Of a stretch of 24,331 nucleotides of DNA, positions 1,541-22,979 are shown piece by piece (positions within the stretch are counted from its first letter, which is position 1; the number at the start of each line of letters is the position of its first letter). Source of the DNA: a virus (Duplodnaviria; Heunggongvirae; Uroviricota; Caudoviricetes); the IMG/VR virus record IMGVR_UViG_2778261216_000006. One strand, written 5' to 3'. Position numbers and translations under genes: made by a program. The notes under the pieces are model-generated. The model saw only the letters and a list, made by a program, of their open reading frames with translations, was not told the DNA's origin and did not search any database.

Positions 1541-1612
1541 CAAATTGACTACACCATTAACTACACCGTTCGGTGCACTGTATGAAACAACGTGGAACAA
1601 ATAGACACAAGA
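1541..1612. repeat. Left arm-type repeat (ATTGACTACACCATTAACTACACCG ... GAAACAACGTGGAACAA)
   Basis: ~75-bp imperfect direct repeat of 16455-16535; it lies ~70 bp inside the core, as expected for integrase/Xis arm sites. Confidence 0.5.
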
Positions 1613-1898
1613 AATATACAGGCGGGTAATCTTTCCAGGGGGAAGCGCACCAATTCATGAGGGGCGTTAATGTCGATATGGGGATCCCCATAACGGGGCT
1701 ACCGGATTTTTTTTCCGGTTAACCTTTAATCAGGCTGGTGGGTTTTACATACCCTTGATCACCGTAATGATGATCCAGATGTGCACCTTTTCCACCAATG
1801 GCGGAAAGCTCCAACCGTAACGATGATCGCTATGGTTGCCTCGATGGCCTGCGTGGTCATTATGACCATTCAGAATGTGAGGGATGATGTTTCCGCTC

Positions 1899-2305
1899 TC
1901 CTCAAATTGAGGTTACCGGAAATATCAACTACTTAACGATAAACTGGCGAGTAATTAAACTGCGAAAATTTCGTAGCTTGTGACTATCTGAAAGATCGTC
2001 GGTTGTTCCGGCCTCAACCGTTGGCTGTTTCCGAGAATATCAACGGGTTAGCAAAGCGCAATTTTGCACTTTGCTTTAAGTTCAACCAGTTACCGCCAGC
2101 TTCCCCCAATGGGGGATTGTGGAATAATCAACGGTTTAGGCCTTAATCATCTGCGTAAACATAAGTAATCATAATGATCATTCAGCCAGCGCAATTTTGC
2201 GCTTTGCTTTAAGTTCAGCGAGTTACAGCGCCGACTTCCTCAAATTGAGGTTGCCGGAAATATCAACCAGTTACGAGGCTCAAAATTGAGCCGCCTTTAA
2301 ATCAA
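1899..2305. repeat. Structured non-coding repeat region near the island left end
   Basis: No ORF of 60 aa or more; two ~40-bp direct repeats carrying palindrome CCTCAAATTGAGG (1899-1940, 2237-2277), two copies of hairpin AGCGCAATTTTGC(G/A)CTTTGCTTTAAGTTCA (~2056, ~2190), five (A/T)ATCAAC motifs. Confidence 0.5.
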
Positions 2306-2309
2306 CACG

Positions 2310-2591
2310 TTACCGCCGTAACCGCTCCGGCTTCTTCCAGTTGTACGTAATTTTCTCTTTCTCCCTGTACATCTCTACACGGCGATTGTAGGCCAGCATT
2401 TCAAGAACGCGGATCCGTATGTCGCGCATATCCGCATCATTAAGCTGGATACCATCACGGCGCATCACCTCAGCAACAACACGCGCATAATTTTCGGCTG
2501 TCACGCTGTCCGGCTGCGTGGTCTGTTCGTCAGCCTGCTGGCTGATTCCAGAGACGCGGCGGATTAATCGCAGTATTTCGGCTTCTGTCAT
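2310..2591 (-). CDS. Hypothetical protein (93 aa) immediately downstream of terminase large subunit
   Basis: ORF begins 14 nt after the TerL stop with a GAGG ~10 nt upstream; no recognisable family. Confidence 0.5.
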   Translation of the reverse strand: MTEAEILRLIRRVSGISQQADEQTTQPDSVTAENYARVVAEVMRRDGIQLNDADMRDIRIRVLEMLAYNRRVEMYREKEKITYNWKKPERLRR

Positions 2592-2604
2592 GCTGCTGAC
2601 CTCA

Positions 2605-4266
2605 TTACACCCCGCTAAATTCTTCCAGTTTCTGGCGGTGGCTGTCGCTTATATCAAAAGCAAAATCCTCATGCTCTGCCTGGAATGTACCAAACGCCAT
2701 CAGCGCCGCTACGCTCGGGTCTATCTTGTTCGGTGATTTTTTCTTGTTCGGCTTGATATTGGCGTTCGCGTCACTCTGCATCACGACGTTACTCATCGAC
2801 CAGGACAACACCGGATCGCCACGATGCACAATCACCCTGCGGTTAACAAAAACTTCGAACGATTTCGCCGCCGGACTGAATCTGAGGTAGGTTTGCGGGA
2901 ACGGCTCCACCTCAAAACCAGCCCCCTGTAATTGCGTCCTGAGATGCGTGGCGTTCCACGTATCAAAGCCCACCAGCCTGATATTAAATTTCTCCGCATC
3001 CTGCATGATGTCATCTCTGATCCGGTCGTAATCAATGCAGTCACCTGGCGTTGTGCGTATCCAGCCCGCTTTAGCCCACTGGCGATAGACAGCGCGGTTT
3101 TTATTGGCGGGGTTCTGTAGCTGGAACTCCGGCAGATAATGACGGGAAACCAGCATGATATTTTTACCGACCGGAAAGGCATAGCACACGCTGGAAATAT
3201 CGCTGGTTGATGATAAGTCCAGCCCCGCGTAACACTCCTGCCCGTGTAAATCTTCCTCCGTGAACGTTCCGGCACACTCAGCCCATGCGCCGTTACCCAT
3301 CCACGGGGTAGCCCCCTGGCACCAGATATTAAATCGCTTTGTCATCATCTCCACCCATTGCGACGGAATACCCCGCGCTTTCTGGATGGTTGAGGCCAGT
3401 TTTTCACGATCCACGGAAACATCGATGTTAGGGTTAGCCTTTATCCACATCGCCGGATCATCAACCTCGTTTTCGTCGTCCAGCTCGTAAATCAGCACAA
3501 AAATTGAATCGTTGACCTCTTCGCCGTCCAGGATCTGGCAGCAATAATCATAGTGCTGTTTACAGGTTGAAACGACGTTACTGCCCGATGTGGTAATGGC
3601 AAATAACAGCCCTTCGGGACGTGCGCCCATCCCCAGCTCAAGCGCGGAATAAACGCCGTTATCGGGGTGTAGGTGGTATTCGTCCACGATGGAAAGGCTG
3701 GGGTTTGTTCCCTCGATGGTTGCCGCTTTTGCTGCCAGCGGCTTTAACAGGCTGTTGCTTTTCGGGTGCATCACCTTGTGGGCCTGAATATTCACCCGCC
3801 TGCGTAACGGTCGGGATAAAAGGCACATCTGACGCGCATCATCAAAAACGATCCGCGCCTGGTCACGGCTCACCGCTGCGGTGTAAATATCCTGCTGCCC
3901 GTTCTCCATAATCAGAAACCAGTTAGCCAGAATCGCGGCGGTCGTGGATTTCGCATTTTTGCGCGGCACTTCGATAAAGGCGCTCGTGTATTTGCGCCGT
4001 CCGGTGGCCTTAACCTTAAAGCCGAGGATGCACGCAAAGGCGAACTGCTGCCACGGCTCCAGCTCAATGGGTCTGCCACGCATCGGCCCTTTTACGTGCG
4101 GGCACACCCTGGAAAAGGCAATAAACCGCTCCACAACCTCACGATCGAACGTGTAAAGGGGGCTTTCAAGGTCCGAAAAGTACCGTTTAACGGCCTGTTT
4201 CAGCCGTTTACAGGCCGGAATTTTGCCCGTTTTTACGTCTTCTGCGTACTTATTCCAGGCGGTCAA
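2605..4266 (-). CDS. Phage terminase large subunit
   Basis: 553-aa ORF (TTG start in track) with ATPase and nuclease regions typical of HK97-like TerL; start overlaps the TerS stop. Confidence 0.93.
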   Translation of the reverse strand: MTAWNKYAEDVKTGKIPACKRLKQAVKRYFSDLESPLYTFDREVVERFIAFSRVCPHVKGPMRGRPIELEPWQQFAFACILGFKVKATGRRKYTSAFIEVPRKNAKSTTAAILANWFLIMENGQQDIYTAAVSRDQARIVFDDARQMCLLSRPLRRRVNIQAHKVMHPKSNSLLKPLAAKAATIEGTNPSLSIVDEYHLHPDNGVYSALELGMGARPEGLLFAITTSGSNVVSTCKQHYDYCCQILDGEEVNDSIFVLIYELDDENEVDDPAMWIKANPNIDVSVDREKLASTIQKARGIPSQWVEMMTKRFNIWCQGATPWMGNGAWAECAGTFTEEDLHGQECYAGLDLSSTSDISSVCYAFPVGKNIMLVSRHYLPEFQLQNPANKNRAVYRQWAKAGWIRTTPGDCIDYDRIRDDIMQDAEKFNIRLVGFDTWNATHLRTQLQGAGFEVEPFPQTYLRFSPAAKSFEVFVNRRVIVHRGDPVLSWSMSNVVMQSDANANIKPNKKKSPNKIDPSVAALMAFGTFQAEHEDFAFDISDSHRQKLEEFSGV

Positions 4267-4606
4267 GCTCGTCCTCTTCTTCTGTTTCCGGTGGATTTTT
4301 ACGGCGGCTTATCGGGTCAAAACCGAGCAAAGAGGCCATTTTTATCATCACTCTTTCAGCGTCGGATTTTGCGCTTAATGCGGGGTTTCTGCTCTCGCCG
4401 CCCTGACTGTTAACAATGCTGAACCCGCGCGCCGCAAGGTCTGCAACGGCTTTCCGGTAAATGGAGTAGTTGACACAATACAGTTCCAGATTGCTCCAGT
4501 CGGCGGGGGTCAGGTCTCCCCGTTCCGCAAGCTGCCTAGATTTTTCCCGCCACTGCTTCACGGCGATATCATCCAGGTAGGCGGGGGCTTTCGGTGGTCT
4601 TGCCAT
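4250..4606 (-). CDS. Phage terminase small subunit (P27-family-like)
   Basis: 118 aa; LELYCVNYSIYRKA and RNPALSAKSDAERVMIKMASLLGFDP match the small-terminase signature; directly upstream of TerL. Confidence 0.85.
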   Translation of the reverse strand: MARPPKAPAYLDDIAVKQWREKSRQLAERGDLTPADWSNLELYCVNYSIYRKAVADLAARGFSIVNSQGGESRNPALSAKSDAERVMIKMASLLGFDPISRRKNPPETEEEDELDRLE

Positions 4607-4728
4607 GCTTATTTTTCGCCAGATTATTTTTCAAAAAATTCCCGTGCATAAAAATTTGAGGAGGCGTTCGGTGCCCGGCGGGGTCGGGTTTGTCCTGAAA
4701 ACGCCCCCCACCCCGTCATACAGCCTCA

Positions 4729-4911
4729 TCAGCGATTGCGGAAACATTCCATAACCTCGCGGTCACGGTCGGTTAATCGCTTCGCTGTGATGCGTTCTGC
4801 GCGTCCTGACGCTTTATCTTTATGCCCTGTTTCCTGTGTCTTCCATGCGTCACGCTGCCTTATAAGTCCACGGATAAGGCGGTTTTGTTCCCGATCATTC
4901 ATCAGCGTCAT
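4729..4911 (-). CDS. Hypothetical small charged protein (~60 aa) between HNH and TerS
   Basis: C-terminal part of track ORF 4729..5133 lying past the HNH stop (MTLMNDREQNRLIRGL...); the start is my estimate. Confidence 0.35.
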   Translation of the reverse strand: MTLMNDREQNRLIRGLIRQRDAWKTQETGHKDKASGRAERITAKRLTDRDREVMECFRNR

Positions 4912-5335
4912 ACATCCAGTTATTGCGGTTAGCGGCCCGTTCTTCCTCTTCACGAAATCCACCTGCGGCACGCTTGCTTTTTGTTGCCGGATCAAGCCAT
5001 TTCGTTTTCTGGTTATGACACGCCTGACACAATGGTTGATGGTTCCATTCGGGCCAGAAGAGAACATCATCACCGCCATTAATCGGGATAATGTGATCCA
5101 CCACCACGGCGGGCGTATATATCCCCTTCTCAAGGCATCGCACGCATAACGGGTTTTTACTCAGATACATGGCGCGGTATTTGTCCCACTGTCTGGAATA
5201 TCCACGCGCGCGGCGGTGTCCTCGTCTGGCATCCTCTGCACGCCATGCCGCCCGCCTGTGCTCTTCACACTTGCCGGATTTAACGCGCCTGTTACAGCCT
5301 GGTTCTGTGCATCGTCTTAATGGTTGCCACGGCAT
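4895..5335 (-). CDS. HNH endonuclease (phage packaging-associated)
   Basis: 146 aa; Cys-rich N-terminus, VVDHIIPINGG and CQACHNQKT motifs. Confidence 0.9.
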   Translation of the reverse strand: MPWQPLRRCTEPGCNRRVKSGKCEEHRRAAWRAEDARRGHRRARGYSRQWDKYRAMYLSKNPLCVRCLEKGIYTPAVVVDHIIPINGGDDVLFWPEWNHQPLCQACHNQKTKWLDPATKSKRAAGGFREEEERAANRNNWMYDADE

Positions 5336-5631
5336 CAGTACACCCCCACATCACGGTAAGCCGTCCAGAGTGCGCCAATCGTCATGGGTACGCGTGTTTT
5401 TGCGTTATCCGCGACAATCTGGCGATTCTCATACAGGTGAGCGATAAACATCATGCAGCCAATCTTTATGGCTGGCGTGAACTCCAGCCCGTCATCAAAG
5501 CGCCTGCCTATGTGTATCTGGCACGCCTCAAGCGATGCGGCAATGTATCCGCTGATTAACTGGTCTTCCTCGTCGCCATCGATGCGGCAATGGAGTTTCA
5601 CTTCTTCCAGGGTGATAAGTTCTTCTGTCAT
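5335..5631 (-). CDS. gp6-like head-tail connector protein
   Basis: 98 aa; LITLEEVKLHCRIDGDEEDQLISGYIAA N-terminus typical of this family. Confidence 0.8.
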   Translation of the reverse strand: MTEELITLEEVKLHCRIDGDEEDQLISGYIAASLEACQIHIGRRFDDGLEFTPAIKIGCMMFIAHLYENRQIVADNAKTRVPMTIGALWTAYRDVGVY

Positions 5632-6008
5632 TTTTCCGCGCCCTCACGACAAAGAATTTCAAGGCGTGTCCTGGCGGCATCCGGCAGCGGCTGCCCGATG
5701 ATATTCAGTACACGCCCCGCCAGCGGCCCCGTACTGACCTTTATCCGGCTGGTGGCGTTGATGTCCTTCCGGTACCGTATCCAGATCCTTACGGTACCAA
5801 TCGCCAGCTCTGCACCCGATGAAATGGCCTCCTTGCTGCTGACCATGTTCACGCTTGCCCAGAGTGTGTGACCGTCCTCCCACGTTTCGAGTATTTCGCC
5901 GGTTATATCCCTGGTCTGTTTCAGGGTCTGAATCGTTATCCTGTCACGCAGTCGCCCTATGTTCATTCCGGTTTTTCTCCCTCGCTGATTTTTACTTCCT
6001 GTTTCCAT
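5628..6008 (-). CDS. Phage head closure / head-tail adaptor protein
   Basis: 126 aa; MNIGRLRDRITIQ ... VRIWIRYR ... pattern; the true start may be the internal Met near 5966. Confidence 0.78.
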   Translation of the reverse strand: METGSKNQRGRKTGMNIGRLRDRITIQTLKQTRDITGEILETWEDGHTLWASVNMVSSKEAISSGAELAIGTVRIWIRYRKDINATSRIKVSTGPLAGRVLNIIGQPLPDAARTRLEILCREGAEK

Positions 6009-7174
6009 GCCTGGCTGAACTCATCACCACCATCACGCGGTGACAGTCCTTCACGTTCGCGGGCTTCGTTCGGACACATAACGCCGGATTTGATGCCGCG
6101 CTCATAGGTGGCAAAGCGTTCGCCAGGTGTGGCCCGTAACAGGTCCGCGCTGTCAAACTCCACCTGATACCGGATACCAGGTACAGGCGAGGCCACCAGC
6201 AGGGCGTTTTTTATCTGCTGCTCAAAGTTCGCCAGCCACGGGCGCATCGTCATGGTGAGAAATGCGCGGCTTGCCTCGCTGAAATTGCTGTAGGTGCTGT
6301 TGCTGTATTCCTGCAAAAAAATCGGCGAGACGTTGAACATTCGGGCGATGTCTTCAATGGTGAAGCGACGGGAGGCCAGCCATTCAGCATCCTGATTACT
6401 CATGCCCAGCTGCTGATAGCTCATACCCCCTTCAAGGATGGGCGTTTTTCCGGCGTTTCTGGCCCCTTTGTAGCGTTCCAGTGCGGCTAATGCCTGTTTG
6501 CCCTTCACGCCGTCCAGCCATTCGCCTGACGTGATAACCCCTGCCGCCATCATGCCATCACGCATCACGCTCGCGCCGTGGCGTTGTTGGGCCAGCCCAA
6601 GCCCCAGCGATTCGCGGCAGATGGTTACAGGTGAGCGCCCCATAAAGCCGTCATCCGTGGAGTAACGAAGGTGAAGTACTTCCCACGGTAAATAGTTGCG
6701 GGTGTTTCCGGTGTAAGCGTCAGTGATGCAGTAGCGCCAGTTGTGTTCGCCTGTCTGCTCCACGTTCACCGACTGCGGCGGGTAAGGATGTAAAGCCACC
6801 GGAAAACCATCACGCCCCCACTGAATCACCGCATAAGCATTACCGTTTAACAGGCAGTGGCGGATCATCATTCGCTTAAACTGGTAGGGAGTCTGCCACG
6901 CGTTCGGGCGCTCGTTGAGGATGTGATCGACCGGATGAGAATCAAGCCACTCGCGGGCCTCCTTCCCCTTCTCATTGCGTACCAGGTACAGGTAACACGG
7001 CATGGTAGCCACCGCCTCAGAGATGACCGTGACGGCGTTCATAACGGCGGGCAGTGATTCCGCTGTCCCCGATGATACGTACTCACCCGCCCCCGTGTTC
7101 GATGTGCCAGCCAGCGCCATAAACTCATCAAGCGTCATGCTGCGCTGCTCTTTTTTTCTTCTGAAAGGCCACAT
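5963..7174 (-). CDS. Phage portal protein, HK97 family
   Basis: 403 aa; size and conserved blocks of the portal family; lies between protease and head closure genes. Confidence 0.9.
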   Translation of the reverse strand: MWPFRRKKEQRSMTLDEFMALAGTSNTGAGEYVSSGTAESLPAVMNAVTVISEAVATMPCYLYLVRNEKGKEAREWLDSHPVDHILNERPNAWQTPYQFKRMMIRHCLLNGNAYAVIQWGRDGFPVALHPYPPQSVNVEQTGEHNWRYCITDAYTGNTRNYLPWEVLHLRYSTDDGFMGRSPVTICRESLGLGLAQQRHGASVMRDGMMAAGVITSGEWLDGVKGKQALAALERYKGARNAGKTPILEGGMSYQQLGMSNQDAEWLASRRFTIEDIARMFNVSPIFLQEYSNSTYSNFSEASRAFLTMTMRPWLANFEQQIKNALLVASPVPGIRYQVEFDSADLLRATPGERFATYERGIKSGVMCPNEAREREGLSPRDGGDEFSQAWKQEVKISEGEKPE

Positions 7175-7175
7175 A

Positions 7176-7748
7176 TCACACCCCCGCTAAATCCACCCAC
7201 CAGCGGCGATTATCCGCACGCGGCATTTTTTCGGGGTGCTGCTCATACAGGGAACGGCGGGCCAGCTCCACGCCGGAATCGGGGTAAGCCGGTACCGATG
7301 TAACGGTAATTTCGTACAGTTCCGCCACCAGCACGGTGCGCACGCATGGATCTGTTGTGGTATCCCATACATCCTTACGGGAGCGAAAGCCAAAGCTCAT
7401 CCCCGAGATGTCCCCACGCTTAACCAGTTCGATAACGTCGCGCCCTGTACTGGTATCCGGTGGGGTCAGTTCAAAGCGTAACCCTGTTTCGTCCTCTTCC
7501 AGTTTCAGCGTGCCGGAACGGGTGCGCCCCAGTAACATGCTGTGGTCATGCTCATACAGGCCGCGAACGTCATTACCCGCCGCAAGCCATTCAGTAAACG
7601 CCCCCCGCTGGAATTTTTCGTAAAACTCACCCCATAACAGTTCTGAAAGCTTATCCCAGCGAACAACGTAGCCCGTCAGCGTACCGGCTCCGCTGGTGGT
7701 GATTTCCGATGACCGGATTTCCATACTCTTCATAATTTTTTCACCCAT
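7176..7748 (-). CDS. HK97-family prohead serine protease
   Basis: 190 aa; TLTGYVVRWDKLS, HDHSMLLGRT and GMSFGFR blocks. Confidence 0.9.
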   Translation of the reverse strand: MGEKIMKSMEIRSSEITTSGAGTLTGYVVRWDKLSELLWGEFYEKFQRGAFTEWLAAGNDVRGLYEHDHSMLLGRTRSGTLKLEEDETGLRFELTPPDTSTGRDVIELVKRGDISGMSFGFRSRKDVWDTTTDPCVRTVLVAELYEITVTSVPAYPDSGVELARRSLYEQHPEKMPRADNRRWWVDLAGV

Positions 7749-7787
7749 AAAACACTAAAGGGGCTTTTAAGCCCCTTCTGTATGCTG

Positions 7788-8993
7788 TTAATCGTCGTCC
7801 TGTGGCAGTTCCAGAATCTTGATCGCGTTCGAATCCACCACGCCACCGCCTAAATATTTCTGCGTGAAAATTTTGATGAAGCCCGGCTCTGTGAGGTTGT
7901 CCGGTCTGGTGCGAACACCTGTTTCGTGATCAACAATGTAGTAACCGCGTTTGAAGTCACCCAGGGCAATAACGTTATCAGGCATAAACTCCAGATATTC
8001 GACCGGAAGGCCCAGCAACGTATCAGGATCACCCGCCTGTAAACGGTCGCGCCAGATGTAATCACCGTTCGCGTTCTTCACCTTCTGAAGTTTTGCCGCC
8101 GTCGTGGAGTTAACCACCCAGACCGCGTTTTTGCGGTATTTTTTACGTAATGCAAATTTCAGGTCGATCAACGGGTCCGCAGATGTCCACGCCAGAGATT
8201 CGGAAGGTTTAATTACCTGCAACGTACCAAAATCACGCTCTTTGTCGTTCTTCTCTGCACGGGGTACGGATAAAAAACCTTTTGCTTTTTTGTCACCGTC
8301 GCCCACAACCAGATCGCTTTCTTCGGTTTCCGTGAAGGTGTCGCCAATCTCACCCGTCAGCCATGAAAGGATGTCCACATCGGAAAAATCCACGATTTCC
8401 TGTGTGGTGCGCGGGTACGCATAGACCGGATACAGCTTAATGCTCACCTCGTTAATCTGCGGGGTGCTGGTCTGTTCGCGTGTCTTACCCTCTTCACCGT
8501 GGTTAACGGTCGCACCGCCAGCGGAAACAAGCTGCTTAAACTCGTTGCTGCTGATTTTCTTCACGGTACAGATGCGGCGCATGGTGGACTCATCCGCCAG
8601 CATTCGCATGATTTCGGTGTTCAGCTCGGGGATAACGGTATAACCACCATCAGCGGGAACGCCTGTACTTAATGCGCGGGTTTCACCCGTCAGAATGTAG
8701 TTTCGTAGTTCTGCGGGGTCAGTGGTCTGACTGCTTTTACCTGGCTTGCTGCGCTCTTCGTCTGCAATGGCTTCAAGGCGGGAAATGTCTTTATCGAGGG
8801 ATTCAGCTTTAGCGCGTAATTCGTCAAATTTTGCGCCCTCAGCATCGTTAAGACTGCGGTTTTCTTTTTCCGCGTTCTCCAGCATGTCGCGCATCTGATT
8901 TTTAATGGCGGTTTTCTGCTGGCGTAATTCGATTATTCTCGGCATAAAAAAAGTCCTGGGGTTAAGTAAGGAACTCCAGGACGCGGCAAACAC
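7788..8993 (-). CDS. Major capsid protein, HK97 family
   Basis: 401 aa; N-terminal coiled-coil delta-domain-like region, then a conserved HK97-fold body; start (GTG at 8993 or internal Met) uncertain. Confidence 0.93.
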   Translation of the reverse strand: MFAASWSSLLNPRTFFMPRIIELRQQKTAIKNQMRDMLENAEKENRSLNDAEGAKFDELRAKAESLDKDISRLEAIADEERSKPGKSSQTTDPAELRNYILTGETRALSTGVPADGGYTVIPELNTEIMRMLADESTMRRICTVKKISSNEFKQLVSAGGATVNHGEEGKTREQTSTPQINEVSIKLYPVYAYPRTTQEIVDFSDVDILSWLTGEIGDTFTETEESDLVVGDGDKKAKGFLSVPRAEKNDKERDFGTLQVIKPSESLAWTSADPLIDLKFALRKKYRKNAVWVVNSTTAAKLQKVKNANGDYIWRDRLQAGDPDTLLGLPVEYLEFMPDNVIALGDFKRGYYIVDHETGVRTRPDNLTEPGFIKIFTQKYLGGGVVDSNAIKILELPQDDD

Positions 8994-9035
8994 TCAACCG
9001 TTTTTCATAAGGAAATCAGCAATCGCACCGATCGT

Positions 9036-9083
9036 TTTCCCGCCTGGTAATGAATATTGGCGAGCACATTAACAGGCGGGAAA
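9036..9083. promoter_or_regulatory. 11-bp perfect inverted repeat TTTCCCGCCTG / CAGGCGGGAAA with 26-nt spacer in the leader of the capsid operon
   Basis: Read directly; located 45-90 bp upstream of the capsid gene start. Confidence 0.35.
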
Positions 9084-9157
9084 GTGGCCCCAGCGTCCTG
9101 GCACCACGGGCGAGAATAATCATGATTCAGTTCGGGTAAAATATGCCGATCCGCTCA

Positions 9158-9189
9158 GTGAACAACGTGGAACAACCACGAACAAATAA
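9158..9189. promoter_or_regulatory. Dyad motif GTGAACAACGTGGAACAACCACGAACAA upstream of the capsid operon
   Basis: Contains palindrome CGTGG-AACAA-CCACG; near-identical copy, inverted, at 15115-15145; half-sites inside both att arm repeats. Confidence 0.4.
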
Positions 9190-9226
9190 TTTACAAAAAA
9201 TAACAAAAAGCCGGATTGCTCCGGCT
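9190..9226 (-). terminator. Rho-independent terminator (hairpin AGCCGGAGCAATCCGGCT plus T-run on minus strand)
   Basis: Stem-loop followed by TTTTTGTTATTTTTT on the minus strand, just downstream of ORF 9246..9470. Confidence 0.6.
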
Positions 9227-9245
9227 GTATGTGCTGTATGGGTGC

Positions 9246-9470
9246 TCAGTCTCTGATCCCTTTCAGAAATTCTATCAATGCATCTGTCTGTTCAGGATTT
9301 ACTGCCAGCATTTCACCGGATAGCGCGCAACGAACAAAACCATGATGATCCTTTTCAATCAGCGCCCCCGTTTCCAGAAATGCGCGGTAATCAGTGATAT
9401 TCATCGTCTCCATGTTGTCAGCATGGTATTTATCACGCTGTTTAAGTATCTCATCAAATTTCATCGGCAT
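9246..9470 (-). CDS. Hypothetical protein (74 aa), moron-like gene flanked by two copies of the same terminator
   Basis: Internal Met of track ORF 9246..9548, preceded by GAGGAAAACGCA; no family recognised. Confidence 0.55.
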   Translation of the reverse strand: MPMKFDEILKQRDKYHADNMETMNITDYRAFLETGALIEKDHHGFVRCALSGEMLAVNPEQTDALIEFLKGIRD

Positions 9471-9562
9471 TGCGTTTTCCTCTGTTGTGTCTGTTTGTTT
9501 CAGATAGTAACTATGCCGGACCGTGACGAAAAGCCAGTAGTGCTCCATACCGTTTCAAATGA

Positions 9563-9588
9563 CGCAAAAAAGCCGGATTGCTCCGGCT
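9563..9588 (-). terminator. Rho-independent terminator (second copy of AGCCGGAGCAATCCGGCT hairpin)
   Basis: Same hairpin plus T-run on the minus strand, downstream of the PerC-like gene. Confidence 0.6.
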
Positions 9589-9610
9589 GCGTGGTGTGGT
9601 TCTGATATTC

Positions 9611-9859
9611 CTACTCAGCTAATTTGCTCAGCCCCATGTCTGCGTAAGTGCGATTTACTGCATTTCTCAGGTCTGCGTAGTTCTCCGTTGGCGGCTCCGG
9701 TGGCCTCTGTGCCTTCCTGGAACATTCCAGCCGTCGCATCGTAACCTGATGCCGTTCCTTGTCTGTCTCCACCAGTTGCATGACTTCACCCCATCGCGCC
9801 GACGCCCTCCGGTAAAATCCTTTCGCCTCGAGTTCCTCCGCTATGCGGTCATGTACCAT
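9611..9859 (-). CDS. PerC-family-like transcriptional regulator (82 aa)
   Basis: Start at internal Met with strong SD (GAGGGGGTGA); MVHDRIAEELEAKGFYRRASARWGEVM resembles the PerC-family N-terminus (from memory). Confidence 0.5.
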   Translation of the reverse strand: MVHDRIAEELEAKGFYRRASARWGEVMQLVETDKERHQVTMRRLECSRKAQRPPEPPTENYADLRNAVNRTYADMGLSKLAE

Positions 9860-9869
9860 CGTCACCCCC

Positions 9870-10280
9870 TCAGAACGGAATACCGTCACCGTAAGGGTCA
9901 TCGCCTCCCGCTGGTGGCTGATTACCCTGTGTGCCTGTGGTTTTGCGTCTGTTCCCGCCTGGACGTGCCGCGCGGGCACTGATTACGCTGTCTGCAATAA
10001 CCTGATACCCCCGCCGCGTTTCCCCGTTCTGTCCGGTCCACTGGCTTACCTGCATCGTGCCGGATACGCTGGCAACATCGCCTTTTTGATGTTTAGCCAG
10101 GAAATCGGCCTGTTTGCCAAATGCGATAACCGATAACCATAACGTCGCCTGTCCGTCCTGTGCCTGGCTGCATGGCAAAGATACCGCCATACGCGCCAGC
10201 GTCATCGGTGTGCCCTTGCTGGTCTGTTTTACCTGCGGGTCGTCCACCAGCCGCCCGTAAGCCGCTATCTGTGCTGTCAT
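9870..10280 (-). CDS. Single-stranded DNA-binding protein (SSB-like)
   Basis: 136 aa; OB-fold core blocks, Gly/Pro-rich linker and acidic C-terminal tip ending DGIPF; ATGA overlap with the upstream gene. Confidence 0.8.
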   Translation of the reverse strand: MTAQIAAYGRLVDDPQVKQTSKGTPMTLARMAVSLPCSQAQDGQATLWLSVIAFGKQADFLAKHQKGDVASVSGTMQVSQWTGQNGETRRGYQVIADSVISARAARPGGNRRKTTGTQGNQPPAGGDDPYGDGIPF

Positions 10281-10528
10281 GCTGTCTGCTCTCCGGTTTT
10301 AACGTTGATTGTTGTTACCTGTTCCGCTTCGGCAATCTCCCGTTCTGTCAGCGTGGCAAAGTTTGCCGCCGCTGTTGTCATGAATGCGCTTATCAGTTCG
10401 GGATGCTCCTTCGCGTATCCTTCCCCCGCGTGGCGGTCTATCGTTCTGATTGCCACCTTTAAAGCCAGTTCAGCCATATCTAACGCCTTATATTTCGGCT
10501 CTGTTCTGTCTCTGCGTTTTTGGGTCAT
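10277..10528 (-). CDS. Hypothetical protein (start uncertain, 66-84 aa)
   Basis: Track ORF 10277..10558 overlaps the iterons at its 5' end, so an internal Met (10528 or 10477) is the likely start; translationally coupled to ssb. Confidence 0.5.
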   Translation of the reverse strand: MTQKRRDRTEPKYKALDMAELALKVAIRTIDRHAGEGYAKEHPELISAFMTTAAANFATLTEREIAEAEQVTTINVKTGEQTA

Positions 10529-10540
10529 TTCTCGCAACCT

Positions 10541-10730
10541 CTCACTTTTTCGCCTCACTTTTTCAAGCGTCTCACTTCGTCGCAGTTGGGATTTTTGGTT
10601 TTTCTATGTGTGTGTTTCATAAGTATTTTTTTACCCCTCACTTTTGAGGATGTATACAGGTCGAAAAGTGAGGGAGAGCAGGCTAATTTTGGCCCTCTTT
10701 CCACCCCCCTCGCTTTTGCTCCTCACTTTT
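10541..10730. repeat. Iteron array (CTCACTTTT repeats, at least 6 copies in both orientations) with AT-rich spacer: candidate island replication origin
   Basis: Copies near 10541, 10554, 10571 (variant), 10637, 10665 (inverted), 10709 (variant), 10722; immediately downstream of the replication helicase gene. Confidence 0.55.
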
Positions 10731-12138
10731 ATAGCGGCGCTACATCATCCCCATCGATACGAATAACCCCATCTTTTTCCAGCTTGTACAGCCAGCGCCG
10801 GAAGTTTTTCATTTCATACCCCAGTTTTTTCATGTCATCACGTAACAGCGGGATCGTGCACTTGTCGCCGTTCTGTGTGCGTGAACGGATGCACCCCCAT
10901 AGCGCGGTATGGTTTTCCGTCTTGTTCCCTGCCTCCTCGATGCGCTCCAGTTCAACGGGAGGGCGCGGCTTATCCACCACCACCAGCGACGTGATTAACT
11001 CCCCGTCAGCGTCGGTAAAAAGCTCCACCACCCGCAAATCATAGGCAGCCTCTTTGAGTTCCTCCGCGTCCTTCATTTTGGTGCATGAGATAACCAGCGC
11101 TTCGCTTCCTGCGTCCTCCCTGCGTATCCGGTATTCAGCATCCAGTGATGCACGAAATGCACTGGAACCGCGCGCGCCTTTCGTCTCATCCTTGCCGGAA
11201 TGGTGAACCACCAGCACCGTGGCCCCTGTGCGTCGTTTCAGTTCGTCACACCCACGGATAAACGCCCCCATGTCGCGGGAGTCATTTTCATCATTGCCGC
11301 CAAAGCAGCGCGCCAGCGTGTCCAGAATAATCATGCGAACAGGTTTACCCGTTTCCCTCTCCACCTGACTGGCAGCAATAACCAGTTCATCAACATCAAG
11401 CGGGACAGCCGGAAAGATGGGACGGTTTACCAGATACAGATTTTTCACCTGCTCACCGTGCACAACCTCCCAGGCTTTTACACGACGCGGAACGCCGATA
11501 CCGCCTTCACCAACCACATAGAGAACAGCGCCATGCGCCACCCTGCGGCCTCCCCACTGGCGGCCCGTGGAAACGTGACACGCCCACGATCCGGCAAGGA
11601 ATGATTTATAGGAACCGCTCGCCCCGTATATGCTGCAAAGCGACGATGCCGGAATAATCCCCTTTACCACGTAATCAAGCTGTGTGTCGTATCCGGTAGA
11701 TCCAACGCTCATCGGTAGCGTGGTTTTTCGCTGGGGAATTTTTTTCATGACCAGGCTTTCCCCGCGTTCCCATGCCTCCCTAAGCCGTGGAAGCTGGTCG
11801 CTCCATTCCTCCAGCAATTCGAAATTTTCAGAAAGTAGCCGCGCCTCCTGGACTCCGGCGATCGCCAGTTTCGTGGCGATGGTTAACAGCTGCGGCTCTT
11901 CAATATTTCCGGCGCGTATCACCGTCGCCCTGTATCGCCCATCATCAACAATCTGGAGGTTATCCAGTTCGCTTAACTGATAACGCCCCAGATAAACGGG
12001 AGGGACTGGATCGCCTGCTTTTTTGGCCTGTGCAATGATGTAATGCTCTGCGAATGAGTGAGCATCAATACCCGCAAAAATAATCGCATCGGTGTATTTG
12101 TCTTTCGGTAATAGTTTTACGTTCGGTGCCAGTTTCAT
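10729..12138 (-). CDS. Replication protein, RepA-like AAA ATPase/helicase (satellite pri-rep type)
   Basis: 469 aa; Walker A (YGASGSYKSF), Walker B (RMIILDTL), VVHHSGKDETKGARGSSA block. Confidence 0.85.
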   Translation of the reverse strand: MKLAPNVKLLPKDKYTDAIIFAGIDAHSFAEHYIIAQAKKAGDPVPPVYLGRYQLSELDNLQIVDDGRYRATVIRAGNIEEPQLLTIATKLAIAGVQEARLLSENFELLEEWSDQLPRLREAWERGESLVMKKIPQRKTTLPMSVGSTGYDTQLDYVVKGIIPASSLCSIYGASGSYKSFLAGSWACHVSTGRQWGGRRVAHGAVLYVVGEGGIGVPRRVKAWEVVHGEQVKNLYLVNRPIFPAVPLDVDELVIAASQVERETGKPVRMIILDTLARCFGGNDENDSRDMGAFIRGCDELKRRTGATVLVVHHSGKDETKGARGSSAFRASLDAEYRIRREDAGSEALVISCTKMKDAEELKEAAYDLRVVELFTDADGELITSLVVVDKPRPPVELERIEEAGNKTENHTALWGCIRSRTQNGDKCTIPLLRDDMKKLGYEMKNFRRWLYKLEKDGVIRIDGDDVAPL

Positions 12139-12434
12139 TTTTTACCCCTGAATCCGTTAATCATGGTTTTCAGCTTCTGGATGTTTGCCCGTGCCCTGGC
12201 GTTGCTGGTGGGCACGTTATGCGGCGCGGTCTGTACCAGAGAAAAATCACGCCGGAACTGATAAACAGGCATCACGCAATCATATTCGTAACCTTCACGG
12301 CGGTAAGTTACGCACCGTCCCGCCACGCCCTTAATCATTACCATGCCGCCGTACTGGTCGCGGTAAATATCACCGCGCGTAAATTTAGGGTGAGTGTTGC
12401 CACTGGCAGTTAAGCCAGAATATTTAAGTTTCAT
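12135..12434 (-). CDS. Hypothetical protein (99 aa)
   Basis: GGAGA SD ~9 nt upstream; stop overlaps the rep start (ATGA). Confidence 0.55.
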   Translation of the reverse strand: MKLKYSGLTASGNTHPKFTRGDIYRDQYGGMVMIKGVAGRCVTYRREGYEYDCVMPVYQFRRDFSLVQTAPHNVPTSNARARANIQKLKTMINGFRGKK

Positions 12435-12439
12435 TATTT

Positions 12440-12670
12440 TTATTCTCCGGTGTGGGGCGCGTTATTATTTTCGTGAATTGCCATTGCCTTATCCAGTTCA
12501 TCAATAACAGGCGATAGTAATGTCTGAATGGCTGCAAACATTAATGACGAAGATTCTTCGCCAGATTCCGGCACTTCAATTAATTTGCCTAACAACGCAT
12601 TCATTTCCTTTGCGCGGATTAATGCGTTTTCAGAGTGGATTAATACTTCAAAAGGGATTTTATGCATCAC
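12440..12670 (-). CDS. Hypothetical protein (76 aa)
   Basis: AAGGGAG SD upstream; tightly packed in the operon. Confidence 0.5.
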   Translation of the reverse strand: MMHKIPFEVLIHSENALIRAKEMNALLGKLIEVPESGEESSSLMFAAIQTLLSPVIDELDKAMAIHENNNAPHTGE

Positions 12671-12890
12671 AAATTTTCTCCCTTATTCTTTTAATGTCCT
12701 CATTAAGGATGTCTGTAACTTTTATCAGCGAGTTTTTGGCAATTATTTTTATTGTTTTAAGTTTTCTTTTGTCGTGCTCCGACTGTGATTTTCTCTCCAT
12801 GCTCTCCACCATGTGGGTAACATCAACGAGCGCACGTATCAGTATTTGCATTGCTTCTTCTGCTGCGTCCGGTGTGGTTTTATTGTGCAT
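12660..12890 (-). CDS. Hypothetical protein (76 aa), first gene of the replication operon
   Basis: Internal Met of track ORF 12660..12932 with strong SD (AGGGGGAAACCT). Confidence 0.5.
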   Translation of the reverse strand: MHNKTTPDAAEEAMQILIRALVDVTHMVESMERKSQSEHDKRKLKTIKIIAKNSLIKVTDILNEDIKRIREKICDA

Positions 12891-13122
12891 AGGTTTCCCC
12901 CTGGCGAATACGGGCGGCAAATACAGCAACACAACCGGACGGGCAACGGTTACGCGCTTCGCGTTCCGTCCAGGCGGTTACGTGGATGATTTGACGTTCT
13001 GACGCGCCAAAGGCAATAAAGCGCCAGATGTATTTATTCAGGTTGTGCGAGTCCCGCCCTTGCGGGTGTGTGGTATGATTTCTCATAGCTACCTCGATAC
13101 TATTGCTATCGTTGGTGGTTAG

Positions 13123-13156
13123 ACGCCCCGTATGTGTGCCACCACTGCGGGGCGTT
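13123..13156 (+). terminator. Conserved hairpin GACGCCCCG...CGGGGCGTT (copy 1) bounding cassette 1
   Basis: 8-bp GC-rich stem; near-identical copy at 13860-13896. Confidence 0.45.
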
Positions 13157-13167
13157 GCCTTTTGGTG

Positions 13168-13208
13168 CAAGTCACCTTTAAAGGCTATGCTACTTTCAGG
13201 TGACTTGC
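13168..13208. promoter_or_regulatory. 11-bp perfect inverted repeat GCAAGTCACCT / AGGTGACTTGC (operator-like) upstream of cassette 1
   Basis: Read directly; followed by a T-rich tract and TATACT -10-like hexamer (~13241). Confidence 0.4.
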
Positions 13209-13276
13209 ACTTCAAGCCTTTTTTTATTTTTTTTTCTGCGTATACTGAACGCCACCTAACAGTAAGGAGGCCAGTA

Positions 13277-13456
13277 ATGCCAACGGGTACAACCAACAAC
13301 AAATCACAACAAAAAACGGCTAGAGTTCCTCTAGAAGTTTTAAGCGAAATGAATTTGGTCAAAGAAGAAAACGAAACAGACGCGCAATTCATCGTTACAG
13401 CCATGCGCGGCGAAATCAAACGCCGCCAGCGCCGCAAGGCCAAAGAATCAGAATAA
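13277..13456 (+). CDS. Arc-like ribbon-helix-helix DNA-binding protein (59 aa)
   Basis: Strong SD AAGGAGG 6 nt before ATG; RVPLEVLSEMNLVKEENETDAQFIVTAM matches the Arc pattern (P-x-E-V-L ... EEN). Confidence 0.55.
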   Translation: MPTGTTNNKSQQKTARVPLEVLSEMNLVKEENETDAQFIVTAMRGEIKRRQRRKAKESE

Positions 13457-13461
13457 TCACT

Positions 13462-13505
13462 ATCAGCGCCGTGGTGTGAGGAACTCCGGCGCATTGCTTT
13501 ACAGG
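13462..13505 (+). promoter_or_regulatory. Conserved 44-bp intergenic element ATCAGCGCCGTGGTGTGAGGAACTCCGGCGCATTGCTTTACAGG (copy 1)
   Basis: Contains stem GCGCCG/CGGCGC; second copy at 14146-14189 with a single mismatch. Confidence 0.5.
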
Positions 13506-13513
13506 GCAGCACT

Positions 13514-13741
13514 ATGAACGAACACACATCATCACCGGAAAACGGCGAAAGCACGTCAACATATGAAATCATCCGGCAAAGGCAGTCAGAAGCCTGCGCC
13601 AGACTTGAGGAAGAACTAACCAGAACAAAAATACCACCACCAGCGCCGCGCTTAGTGCCACCAGAAAAATTTGCCCTTGAAGATTTTGTCGATAAATACC
13701 CACGGCGGCTTAAATCCGGCAAAAACCGACCGCCAGGATGA
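13514..13741 (+). CDS. Hypothetical small protein (75 aa), partner of the Arc-like gene
   Basis: ATG 9 nt after the conserved element; shares F-A-x-x-x-F-V-D-K-Y-P-R-R block with the 14198..14401 product. Confidence 0.4.
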   Translation: MNEHTSSPENGESTSTYEIIRQRQSEACARLEEELTRTKIPPPAPRLVPPEKFALEDFVDKYPRRLKSGKNRPPG

Positions 13742-13859
13742 GTGCACAAAACCGAACTATGAAACGGATTATTCCGTTTCCGGGGCGTTTGTGTGTGTAT
13801 AAAGAGTAAGCTATGCTCTTTTATAGCCATAATCGTTACCTCAATTAATGGTTTGGTTA

Positions 13860-13902
13860 GACGCCCCGTATGTGTTCCCATCACTGCGGGGCGTTGTTTT
13901 TT
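13860..13902 (+). terminator. Conserved hairpin GACGCCCCG...CGGGGCGTT plus T-run (copy 2), between cassettes
   Basis: Stem followed by GTTGTTTTTTG. Confidence 0.5.
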
Positions 13903-13945
13903 GTGCTAGTTGTGTGTAATGTGTATATACACATAAACACATTAT

Positions 13946-14140
13946 ATGGGTGTAATTGACGTGTCAACACACAAAAATGAAAGGCGTGGTAATCCTCCTT
14001 TCCAGTTCCGTTTAGATCCTGACTTACGGGAAAAGATGGAAAAAGCACAACAACAAGACGGTGATGACTCTTTAGCTGCTTGGATAAAACGAATAATCCG
14101 AAAAGAATTACAGCAACGCGGTATTGAACCCAAAGAATAA
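13946..14140 (+). CDS. Arc-like ribbon-helix-helix DNA-binding protein (59-64 aa)
   Basis: PPFQFRLDPDLREKMEKAQQQDGDDSLAAWIKRIIRKE follows the Arc pattern (from memory); start ATG 13946 or GTG 13961; palindrome ATGTGTATATACACAT just upstream. Confidence 0.55.
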   Translation: MGVIDVSTHKNERRGNPPFQFRLDPDLREKMEKAQQQDGDDSLAAWIKRIIRKELQQRGIEPKE

Positions 14141-14197
14141 AAAACATCAGCGCCGTGGCGTGAGGAACTCCGGCGCATTGCTTTACAGGTACACACA

Positions 14198-14401
14198 ATG
14201 ACCAATAAAGAATCAACCAATACACCATCGCAAAAAACGAACAGAGAGCACGAAAATATGGCGCTCGAGCATGAATCAGAAAGATTCGCTCCATGCGCTT
14301 TTGTCCTTGATGAGTTTCTAAAAAAATATTCACGTTCTGAACGGATGAAAATGGCAGCACAATACGGCCCCAACAAGCAAGGTAATTGCCCACCAGCCTG
14401 A
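14198..14401 (+). CDS. Hypothetical small protein (67 aa), paralogue of the 13514..13741 product
   Basis: Same position relative to the conserved element; shared FxxxxFVLDEFLKKYSR block. Confidence 0.4.
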   Translation: MTNKESTNTPSQKTNREHENMALEHESERFAPCAFVLDEFLKKYSRSERMKMAAQYGPNKQGNCPPA

Positions 14402-14473
14402 TAGCGGCTATCATTCCCGTGCTTATGTTTGGGATCACATACACATAAGGCGCAGCAGGTTAATTGTTCAGAA

Positions 14474-14506
14474 AGGCGGCTCCATATCGGGGCCGCTTTT
14501 TTTATG
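14474..14506 (+). terminator. Rho-independent terminator ending the plus-strand cassettes
   Basis: GCGGC...GCCGC stem followed by TTTTTTT. Confidence 0.55.
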
Positions 14507-14644
14507 CCTGAAAAACCCCAATTTTGTTGTTTTTCAGTTTCACCAGGGCGAACGAATCCCCGCCCACGTTCGGGCGCATATTCAATCTTCATAGTTATAT
14601 CTCTGTATTAGTGGATGTGTGGCGACTGTGTGCCGCCAGTCTTT

Positions 14645-14833
14645 TTAGTGAACTGCCTTGCAGCTATCCTTCCAGGCCAAAACCTCAGATAAAGACCAGC
14701 CAACAGAACGCCCACCAAGTTTACGACGTGATGGGAATTGTCCGGCCTTTTCCAGGCGGTAGCGGCATGAGCGGCTAAGGCCTGTTAGCTTTTCGCATTC
14801 TTTTTCACGTATAAACCGATCAGTGCTTAACAC
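14645..14833 (-). CDS. alpA: AlpA-family phage regulatory protein (Xis-like activator)
   Basis: 62 aa; LSEVLAWKDS-type C-terminus typical of the AlpA family; sits just downstream of the integrase as in PICIs. Confidence 0.88.
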   Translation of the reverse strand: MLSTDRFIREKECEKLTGLSRSCRYRLEKAGQFPSRRKLGGRSVGWSLSEVLAWKDSCKAVH

Positions 14834-14995
14834 TATTGCCCCCTTTCGTTTCTTAAAGAGTTATTTCGTGTTCTATTGCGTTGGGATGTGTCTGATTGTG
14901 TCAGGATGATTCAGAGTTGGCAAATGTTGGTGTCGCATGGTTTACAGAAAGAGGAATAATCAGGATAAAATCATTTAAATTCATGTTAATACAAA

Positions 14996-15030
14996 GGCAT
15001 AAAATCTTGTTTTATGCCTTTTTTCGCACG
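14996..15030. terminator. Hairpin GGCATAAAA-TCTTG-TTTTATGCC with flanking T-run between int and alpA
   Basis: 9-bp perfect stem followed by TTTTTT on the plus strand; weaker T-tract on the minus strand. Confidence 0.45.
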
Positions 15031-15114
15031 CTTTAACGCGTAATTCACTAATGTATAAAAAACCAGTCACACAAATAAAATCAGTCACTTATAAACCTGC
15101 GTACTTTTTCGCCT

Positions 15115-15145
15115 CTTGTTCGTGGTTGTTCCACGTTGTTTCACA
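15115..15145. promoter_or_regulatory. Inverted copy of the GAACAACGTGGAACAACCACGAACAA dyad motif
   Basis: Reverse complement matches 9158-9189 over ~28 bp; ~70 bp downstream of the int stop. Confidence 0.4.
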
Positions 15146-15207
15146 TTGTTCGCCGTTGTATCTGTGTGCTTATCCAGTATACGCATACTGAAAAAACACG
15201 AAAAAAA

Positions 15208-16458: not shown

Positions 16459-16535
16459 AATTAACTACACCATTAACTACACCGATCGTTGCACAAAGGG
16501 CTACAACGTGAAACAAGCTGGAACAAGAAAAATCA
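16455..16535. repeat. Right arm-type repeat (ATTAACTACACCATTAACTACACCG ... GAAACAAGCTGGAACAA)
   Basis: Direct repeat of 1541-1612, between the int start and the attR core. Confidence 0.5.
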
Positions 16536-21572: not shown

Positions 21573-21911
21573 GTATAAAAATGAACAATCCGAATCCATG
21601 CATGACGTGTAGTGCCTGTTGTGCATTTTTCCGCGTCTCTTTTTACTGGGCAGAAGCTGACGATGCTGGCGGAAAGGTTCCGGGTCAGTCTCACTGAGCA
21701 AATATCCCCCTTTCATCGCTGTATGCGCGGCACCAGTCAGAAAAATCCCCGATGTGTCGCTCTGGCGGGAACTCCGGGTAAAAACGCATATTGCTCTGTT
21801 TACAAAAACCGTCCGTCCACGTGCCGGGAATTCGCAATGTCCGGAGAAAATGGCATCGCAAATGAAGCATGCAACCGCGCCCGGGCAAAATACGGACTTC
21901 CGGAAATCTGA
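21573..21911 (+). pseudogene. YkgJ-family CxxCxxCC cysteine-cluster protein gene, frameshifted
   Basis: N-terminus [38 protein letters not shown] stops at TGA; the rest ([14 protein letters not shown]...[29 protein letters not shown]) continues in the +1 frame (track ORF 21612..21911); consistent with loss of CT in a TCTCTC run. Confidence 0.5.
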
Positions 21912-22074
21912 AAAATCATCCATATCAACAGGATGCACGAAAAATGAGAGTTCCGTCACTTCCGGAATTAACTTTTCCGTGGCACTATTTAATCGGCATA
22001 GTGTATATCTTCACAATAATGACATAATCAACGCAGTTTATGGGGGAGGTGATGGTCCCCCATCTTTTTGTCTG

Positions 22075-22970: not shown

Positions 22971-22979
22971 ACAATGCCC

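Follow-up and report, generated by a model that had tools for sequence, protein, structure and literature searches.

What arrangement of head and packaging genes does a 24,331-nt stretch of DNA (IMG/VR virus record IMGVR_UViG_2778261216_000006; the whole of this stretch is called the window) carry, and why does it depart from that of phage HK97 and its relatives? Annotation with Pfam and PHROGs gave a minus-strand order of capsid, protease, portal, head-closure protein (Hc1), gp6-like adaptor (Ad1), HNH endonuclease, a 60-aa open reading frame (ORF), small terminase (TerS), and large terminase (TerL), and the strands, coordinates, and order reported in an earlier note made from the sequence alone were correct. 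The order is a fixed signature of the proteobacterial clade of phage-inducible chromosomal islands of the capsid-forming type (cf-PICIs), and it is already known, having been published as typical of these elements. We identify the region with high confidence as the nine-gene capsid and packaging operon of a cf-PICI, an allele of the prototype EcCIEDL933 (cryptic prophage CP-933C of Escherichia coli O157:H7 EDL933); no evidence contradicting this identification was found. The features of the module and its immediate surroundings are given below in the direction of transcription, with the amino acid identity of each module protein to that of EDL933.

7788-8945, minus strand: major capsid protein, HK97 fold, first gene (PF05065, 2e-61; phrog_10); 99% identity
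7176-7748, minus strand: prohead serine protease, S78 (PF04586, 7e-48); 97% identity
5963-7174, minus strand: portal protein (PF04860, 9e-91); 99.5% identity
5628-5966, minus strand: head-closure protein Hc1, HK97 gp7-like (PF05521, 2e-23; phrog_25); 97% identity
5335-5631, minus strand: gp6-like head-tail adaptor Ad1 (PF05135, 8e-12; phrog_40); 100% identity
4895-5335, minus strand: HNH endonuclease, terminase cofactor for cos cleavage (PF01844, 2e-8; phrog_144, 8e-45); 99% identity
4729-4911, minus strand: 60-aa ORF between HNH and cos (phrog_3173); 98% identity
4623-4714, minus strand: putative cos region, a conserved noncoding block between the 60-aa ORF and terS
4250-4606, minus strand: TerS, P27/Terminase_4 family (PF05119, 1e-23); 100% identity
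2605-4266, minus strand: TerL (nuclease domain PF20441, 2e-50; ATPase domain PF03354, 2e-25); 98% identity
2310-2591, minus strand: conserved 93-aa ORF after TerL (phrog_1561, 1e-54)

Most adjacent genes overlap or stand 1 to 13 nt apart, the start codon of the Hc1 gene overlapping the stop codon of the portal gene, and there are two real gaps, one of 39 nt after the capsid gene and one of 122 nt between the 60-aa ORF and terS; the module presumably forms a single co-oriented operon. The longest capsid ORF spans 7788-8993, and the likely start at 8945 gives a protein of 385 aa, in whose numbering D257, K290, D295, E319, and R345, together with an SxGxxAD motif at residue 93, are the residues reported for the EcCIEDL933 capsid structure. 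For Hc1 (longest ORF 5628-6008), alignment with HK97 gp7 indicates 5966 as the likely start. In the cf-PICI papers, Hc1 is named the head-tail adaptor and the gp6-like Ad1 the head-tail connector. The 60-aa ORF, annotated as a coding sequence in a related island (L001) and in EDL933, would by position correspond to the EcCIEDL933 hypothetical gene 1792, a match that we draw from the gene numbering and that the paper does not itself state. The 93-aa ORF is found 3' of TerL in about half of the related loci, mainly in close E. coli relatives.

EcCIEDL933 has the same insertion site and the same nine-gene order as the window, and all nine module proteins are 97 to 100% identical between the two, where identity to this module within the proteobacterial family is 50 to 90%; nucleotide identity to EDL933 is 95.6% across positions 2056-10530. 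The two elements share the int, alpA, SSB, and PerC backbone and the 93-aa ORF after TerL, PerC being only 84% identical, and differ in that just the replication/regulation segment is replaced: positions 10530-14117 are largely nonhomologous, with a RepA/AAA_25 helicase in the window and a DUF927 primase-type protein in EDL933. The island spans about 15.0 kb (about 1543-16533) between phoQ and roxA, in a roxA/int ... phoQ layout also present in EDL933, and its att-bounded length lies within the range of about 10 to 18 kb expected of cf-PICIs; the published size of EcCIEDL933 is 15.4 kb (Alqurainy et al., 10.1101/2022.09.08.507074). An integrase, an AlpA-type regulator, and a replication module are present, all on the minus strand, and Pfam and PHROGs scans of the island ORFs detected no tail or lysis families, as expected of a cf-PICI, which has no lysis genes and no complete tail module. 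The only tail-type genes of the window stand outside the island, at 22075-23855. A complete HK97-like phage would combine head, tail, and lysis/lysogeny genes on about 35 to 45 kb, which this element does not: it measures about 15 kb and lacks both tail and lysis genes. Gene content and order in the window agree with the published description of cf-PICIs and with EDL933.

The missing tail and lysis genes could also suggest a decayed remnant of an HK97-like prophage ("cryptic prophage CP-933C"), scrambled and without function, and a homologous capsid is still named "prophage CP-933C" in some sources. This explanation is refuted, and we attach hardly any probability to it: the nine ORFs are intact and lie close together, with start codons that overlap stop codons; the module, present in 1,307 of 5,426 complete E. 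coli genomes, is nearly full-length in 413 of them; its order is conserved across three bacterial orders; and the near-identical prototype is experimentally mobilizable and has a solved capsid structure.

Experiments with EcCIEDL933 demonstrated helper-dependent induction, T=4 capsids of its own, self-packaging that requires every module gene, and tails supplied by the helper; in gene-by-gene mutants, transfer was abolished in all cases except that of gene 1792, where it was severely reduced (Alqurainy et al., 10.1101/2022.09.08.507074). By analogy with this prototype, the island in the window would likewise form its own T=4 capsids, package its own DNA alone, and depend on a helper for nothing but tails. 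Once induced by a helper phage, the island would excise and replicate; expression of the operon would then give small T=4 capsids of the HK97 fold, built from the island's own capsid, protease, and portal proteins; its TerS, TerL, and HNH proteins would cut and package island monomers at its own cos site; and Hc1 and Ad1 would complete the neck, allowing helper-made tails to attach.

To place the order in a wider context, window proteins were searched by tblastn against 80 IMG/VR loci, 80 loci of species-representative genomes, and satellite-sized "phage" records, with related loci defined by a capsid at least 55% identical (n = 156, about 60 species). The satellite order was invariant across these 156 loci, which cover Enterobacterales, Orbales, and Pasteurellales; genera among the species-representative loci include Shigella, Proteus, Providencia, Xenorhabdus, Serratia, Erwinia, Pantoea, Pectobacterium, Gilliamella, Frischella, and several Pasteurellaceae. 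Where the genes concerned could be scored, capsid preceded protease in 151/151 loci, protease preceded portal in 142/142, portal preceded Hc1 and Hc1 preceded Ad1 in 96/96 each, Ad1 preceded HNH in 130/130, and TerS preceded TerL in 125/125; HNH preceded TerS in 124 of 125 loci, the sole exception being a record that begins just upstream of terS. As a phage control, we used 80 loci around capsids related to that of Pseudomonas phage VW-6S, the nearest true phage. There, portal preceded capsid in all 77 loci with both genes and TerL preceded capsid in 75/75, the typical string being HNH-TerS-TerL-portal-protease-capsid-Ad1. HK97 itself reads TerS-TerL-portal-protease-capsid-Ad1-Hc1, with HNH at the right end of the genome. 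Synteny comparison thus gives a constant order in the satellites and the canonical order, (HNH)-TerS-TerL-portal-protease-capsid-Ad1-Hc1, in HK97 and in 77/77 VW-6S-like loci, and the window does not follow the latter. Because it is invariant across the satellite lineage, the satellite order is diagnostic of that lineage, as the earlier note had proposed, and is neither a chance arrangement nor an annotation artifact.

These findings agree with the literature. Alqurainy et al. (2022/23; 10.1101/2022.09.08.507074) described proteobacterial cf-PICIs as having capsid, protease, portal, and connectors followed by hnh-terS-terL, unlike the helper HK106, and in He et al. (2025; 10.1101/2025.02.11.637232) the criteria used to search for cf-PICIs give the module genes in this order. 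Two groups of cf-PICIs from Firmicutes, described in the former paper, have matching gene content, their own capsid, and helper tails, but in one group the operon opens with portal, protease, and capsid and in the other with HNH-TerS-TerL; independent origins have been inferred for these groups (Alqurainy et al., 10.1101/2022.09.08.507074).

Compared with HK97, three differences define the satellite order: the head block lies upstream of HNH, while in HK97 it lies downstream of TerL; capsid and portal are exchanged around the protease; and Hc1 and Ad1 are exchanged. A cyclic permutation of the canonical prophage map, set merely by the att site or the start of a record, bears on the first of these, since rotating HNH-cos-TerS-TerL-portal-protease-capsid-Ad1-Hc1 could put head genes before HNH-TerS-TerL, and one Firmicutes group does open its operon with portal, protease, and capsid (10.1101/2022.09.08.507074). 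Rotation accounts for the position of the head block but is unable to swap capsid and portal (142/142 loci) or Hc1 and Ad1 (96/96 loci), and the rest of the circle is PICI backbone (int, alpA, rep) rather than tail genes; the explanation is refuted and retains almost no credibility.

The earlier note considered the whole set of parts to be permuted. This holds for the head block, which has moved and is internally swapped, but not for HNH-cos-TerS-TerL, which is arranged as in HK97. The noncoding block at 4623-4714 contains a G-run (GGGGTGGGGGG), followed about 35 nt further on by CACCGAACGCCTCCTCAAATTTTTATGCACGGGAATTTTTTGAAAAATAA, and recurs in conserved form in all but one of 23 diverse loci, which range from E. 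coli to Pasteurellaceae (22 of 23); only the chimeric record P12620-1 departs from this. Across Enterobacterales, Orbales, and Pasteurellales, the block is better conserved than the ORFs on either side. The consensus reads GGGGTGGGGG, about 35 variable nt, and ACCnCCCnCCnCCTCAAATTTTTAyGCrCGGnrATTTTTTTGAAAATAA (window about 4714-4623). The joined right and left ends of HK97 have a matching architecture, with a G-run, a spacer, GACCGCCGCCAAA and, beyond the junction, GTTTGAATTTAACGC...CGATTTTTTTAG, followed by terS. The block is therefore probably the cos site of the island, to judge from conservation and architecture. The window has the layout of HK97-type HNH-dependent cos packaging, with HNH upstream of cos and terS and terL downstream; given the conserved block between the 60-aa ORF and terS, the HNH-cos-TerS-TerL unit would be that of the circular HK97 map, and only the head block appears to have been moved and internally permuted. 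The ends of the vB_KppS-Ant record (LR881103), considered as candidate cos termini, were rejected: the record begins 22 nt before terS, ends in GGGGTGGGGGAGGTTTTCAGGAC, and is missing about 75 nt of the conserved block compared with its relatives, so its ends are unreliable as true termini.

How did this order arise? HK97 and HK97-like helpers (HK106 and HK022) have the same protein families as the island, including the S78 protease, gp6-like Ad1, and gp7-like Hc1, but HK97 continues after the head genes with tail, lysis, and lysogeny genes, whereas the island has no tail or lysis genes. We searched 50,697 phage records and obtained the same picture for capsid, TerL, and portal: identities of 57 to 82% in a few satellite-sized or fragment records (vB_KppS-Ant, 16.5 kb; Pmp8, 15.3 kb; Pmp7, 10.7 kb; a 3.8-kb Salmonella fragment; and the chimeric P12620-1), and then at most 37 to 40% in any phage. 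The latter matches are scattered over unrelated phages of several phyla, and the nearest phage is a different one for each protein. For these three proteins, no recent donor phage was found in the collections searched. In a large protein search, all of the matches listed were at least 66% identical, and the interval that separates satellites (at least 57%) from phages (at most 40%) stays unfilled. Klebsiella phage P12620-1 (106 kb), a candidate for a large phage with the satellite order, was rejected as a chimeric assembly ending in a cf-PICI because homology begins within terS and breaks off within the small ORF, where the record ends. Among the records deposited as "phages," vB_KppS-Ant (LR881103.1) and Pasteurella phage Pmp8 (15.3 kb) have their genes laid out as in a cf-PICI, and Pmp7 (10.7 kb) has a satellite-type TerL; together with P12620-1, the records concerned are LR881103.1, OR544139.1, OR544138.1, and PQ569648.1.

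Most likely, the order arose once, early in the proteobacterial cf-PICI clade, by rearrangement of an HK97-type module and not by recent capture; that the rearrangement took place within the satellite lineage itself we consider probable, though well short of certain. The earlier note's statement that the module was reorganized rather than captured intact is accordingly plausible, as no phage arranged like the satellites turned up and phage homologs reach at most 37 to 40% identity, but it is unproven. Under the alternative of an unsampled donor, the module would have been captured intact from an unsampled or extinct phage lineage that already had the satellite order, with no reorganization in the satellite. 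The order of HK97-type head genes is not fixed, as Stx phage 2851 and the EDL933 potB/potC prophage illustrate, and the satellite proteins, at no more than 37 to 40% identity to all known phages, imply a donor lineage that is unknown in any case. Even so, every match of at least 57% to capsid, TerL, or portal in the 50,697 records was satellite-sized (10.7 to 16.5 kb), a short fragment, or chimeric, none of the 156 loci (0/156) showed the satellite order together with tail genes of the same element, and the nearest phage varies by protein. We give intact capture a real but clearly smaller chance, of the order of one in four.

The 2851-type phages deserve closer attention in this respect. In the full-size lambdoid prophage between potB and potC of EDL933 (L248, 24209-32565), the order is HNH-TerS-TerL, a protease-capsid fusion (645 aa, S78), portal, Ad1, Hc1, gp10, and tail genes. 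Head modules of this type occur in 117 phage records, mostly of Stx-converting phages and including the functional Stx2c phage 2851 (L250). The phage 2851/YYZ-2008 type (Pankowvirus) has an HNH-dependent module of the HK97 family in which, as in the island, capsid stands ahead of portal; it differs from the island in that it opens with the terminase genes, has protease and capsid in one fusion, places Ad1 before Hc1, and continues into tail genes, and the phages are full-size (55 to 65 kb). The order of HK97-type head genes is therefore more plastic than the earlier note assumed; the canonical order that it gave is that of HK97 and the VW-6S-like phages but is a majority rule only, from which the 2851 type differs. 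Because the capsid-before-portal order of the 2851 type is not the satellite order, the satellite order was not found to be common in ordinary HK97-like prophages, which the earlier note had named as the finding that would speak against it. One locus with an apparent intermediate arrangement ("portal, capsid, HNH"; L080) was rejected, as Pfam identified it as a phage fragment and not a satellite; the fragment encodes a protease-capsid fusion and a gp6-like connector and also contains a tail-completion gene and an HNH gene that has been inserted.

Several points weigh against an operon reordered within the satellite lineage around an HK97-like cos unit. Ordinary HNH/HK97-type phages of E. coli (the 2851 type) also have capsid before portal, and this weakens the argument that a departure from the canonical order must mean satellite-specific reorganization. 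Rearrangement is itself deduced solely from the fact that the collections searched yielded no phage of satellite order. The cos cleavage point, which may lie near 4650-4665, is placed by conservation and by analogy with HK97, and no mapped position for the block was found in the cf-PICI preprints (10.1101/2022.09.08.507074 and 10.1101/2025.02.11.637232). Finally, a sigma-70 consensus scan detected no promoter on the minus strand upstream of capsid; the scan is uninformative because it returned fewer matches than expected by chance.

Within the module, Hc1 behaves differently from its neighbors. Along its full length (112 aa) it shares 48% identity with HK97 gp7, and it is 50% identical to Hc1 of a VW-6S-like prophage, and Hc1 of the EDL933 potB/potC prophage is 44% identical to it; against such helper-type phages, Hc1 thus reaches 44 to 50% identity, compared with at most about 31% for the rest of the module. 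With respect to HK97, Ad1, TerL, and portal are 22 to 27% identical (TerL and portal about 26 to 27%), the capsid has no similarity detectable by BLASTP, and the remaining module proteins as a whole are at most 27% identical or undetectable. Across related islands, the identity of Hc1 ranges from 25% to 100% while neighboring genes are nearly constant; in one island (L066), portal is 97%, Hc1 47%, and HNH 100% identical to the window. From these sequence comparisons, Hc1 resembles a cassette that can be exchanged to match the tails of helpers, and its variability agrees with the published cf-PICI finding that adaptor and connector genes are swapped to fit the tails of different helpers. HNH-cos-TerS-TerL, and the capsid gene with the hairpin that follows it, could similarly behave as intact cassettes derived from HK97-type phages. 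The order might then be the record of stepwise assembly and ongoing cassette exchange rather than of a single capture, a proposal that we regard as rather unlikely.

The hairpin just mentioned lies in the gap after the capsid gene.

7757-7778, minus strand: GC-rich hairpin with a T-rich tail, directly 3' of the capsid gene (terminator-like match)

It may act as an attenuator or as an mRNA-stabilizing element. A T-tailed hairpin with a perfect stem within 60 nt of the capsid stop codon was found in 55 of 85 unique satellite sequences, as well as in 32 of 53 VW-6S-like phage sequences, and HK97 has an annotated putative terminator after gp5. We therefore rejected the hairpin as a satellite-specific device; since it follows the capsid gene in phages too, it came along with that gene and did not originate in the satellites. 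Its conserved position bears on the possibility that the order is adaptive, with the capsid gene first and followed by the hairpin, in one operon with no phage antiterminator, yielding much capsid and progressively less portal, connectors, and terminase. If portal and connector rings are 12-mers, the gene order approximates the copy number per T=4 particle, with 240 capsid subunits in a full shell and a catalytic terminase, and the hairpin is positionally conserved across the lineage. It is also found 3' of capsid in phages that have capsid last in the head block, and Firmicutes cf-PICI groups use other orders (10.1101/2022.09.08.507074). The capsid-first layout might set subunit stoichiometry for T=4 shells by graded expression with the hairpin, but we judge an adaptive origin of the order improbable, with perhaps one chance in five; if true, the arrangement of the genes would belong to the functional design of satellites that make capsids of their own.

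In practical terms, the order is a cheap and reliable marker that separates proteobacterial cf-PICIs from degraded HK97-like prophages, useful as several cf-PICIs stand in phage databases as "phages." For annotators and engineers, the present analysis adds the HK97-like cos block, the restriction of the permutation to the head block, the closeness of Hc1 to that of helpers, and the existence of phages with other noncanonical orders. These additions leave the understanding of the system unchanged; the feature has already been published and dissected experimentally in an almost identical element.

Both gene orders were also observed side by side on one contig. Related cf-PICIs with capsids 67 to 73% identical to that of the window and a different integrase are inserted inside terL of an HK97-like prophage, flanked by the N- and C-terminal halves of the phage TerL (L044, 27-21065; L217; L218/L076; L048; L049; L051; L071; L074; also L060 and L064). 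The phage TerL is split at two points, around residues 300 to 325 and around residues 206 to 252. These insertions resemble the "A:Terminase_1:245/246" site type listed for helper-embedded PICIs (HE-PICIs; NAR Genom Bioinform 2023, PMC10111431). HE-PICIs are embedded in a prophage; the island in the window is instead chromosomal, at phoQ-roxA, and its integrase is 43 to 48% identical to those of the terL-embedded relatives. Several satellite copies per genome were seen in Xenorhabdus (L094-L134), with 5 loci each in X. anantnagensis and X. innexi, some of them truncated.

The remaining features of the island are its ends and the PICI backbone upstream of the module, annotated with Pfam and PHROGs unless stated otherwise.

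16459-16533, no strand: island end on the roxA side, direct-repeat (att) copy immediately adjoining int
9611-16458, minus strand: PICI backbone upstream of the module
15208-16458, minus strand: int, tyrosine integrase; 95% identity to EDL933
14645-14833, minus strand: alpA
12880-13884, minus strand: repressor-like ORF (backbone scan)
10729-12138, minus strand: RepA/AAA_25 helicase
9870-10280, minus strand: SSB
9611-9979, minus strand: PerC
within the backbone, minus strand: DUF4222 ORF
1543-1617, no strand: island end on the phoQ side, direct-repeat (att) copy pairing with 16459-16533

The flanking direct repeats are imperfect (75 nt, 77% identical between 1543-1617 and 16459-16533). PADLOC found no defense systems on the accessory ORFs. 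In the segment 10530-14117, internal duplications (13116-13164 with 13854-13903, and 13450-13517 with 14134-14201) are arranged around the repressor-like ORF. Two identical 23-nt terminator-like hairpins, at 9205-9227 and 9567-9589, bracket a small ORF (9246-9548; phrog_1957) that sits between perC and the capsid gene; the island of strain S19-141 (L001) lacks this ORF but is otherwise 99% identical. At the other end, the noncoding DNA that separates the att repeat on the phoQ side from the 93-aa ORF contains a 37-nt repeat present four times (1899-2273), each copy with a short palindrome (CCTCAAATTGAGG), and a 42-nt repeat pair lies at 2055-2096 and 2188-2229.

Past potB, the window runs into a prophage (21600-24331), and similarity to EDL933 ends at about 21607. 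The tail-type genes outside the island are found here.

22075-22749: tail-fiber assembly gene
22980-23855: tail-fiber gene

EDL933 has a lambdoid prophage between potB and potC, and the tail-fiber genes at the right end of the window share that potB-adjacent position.

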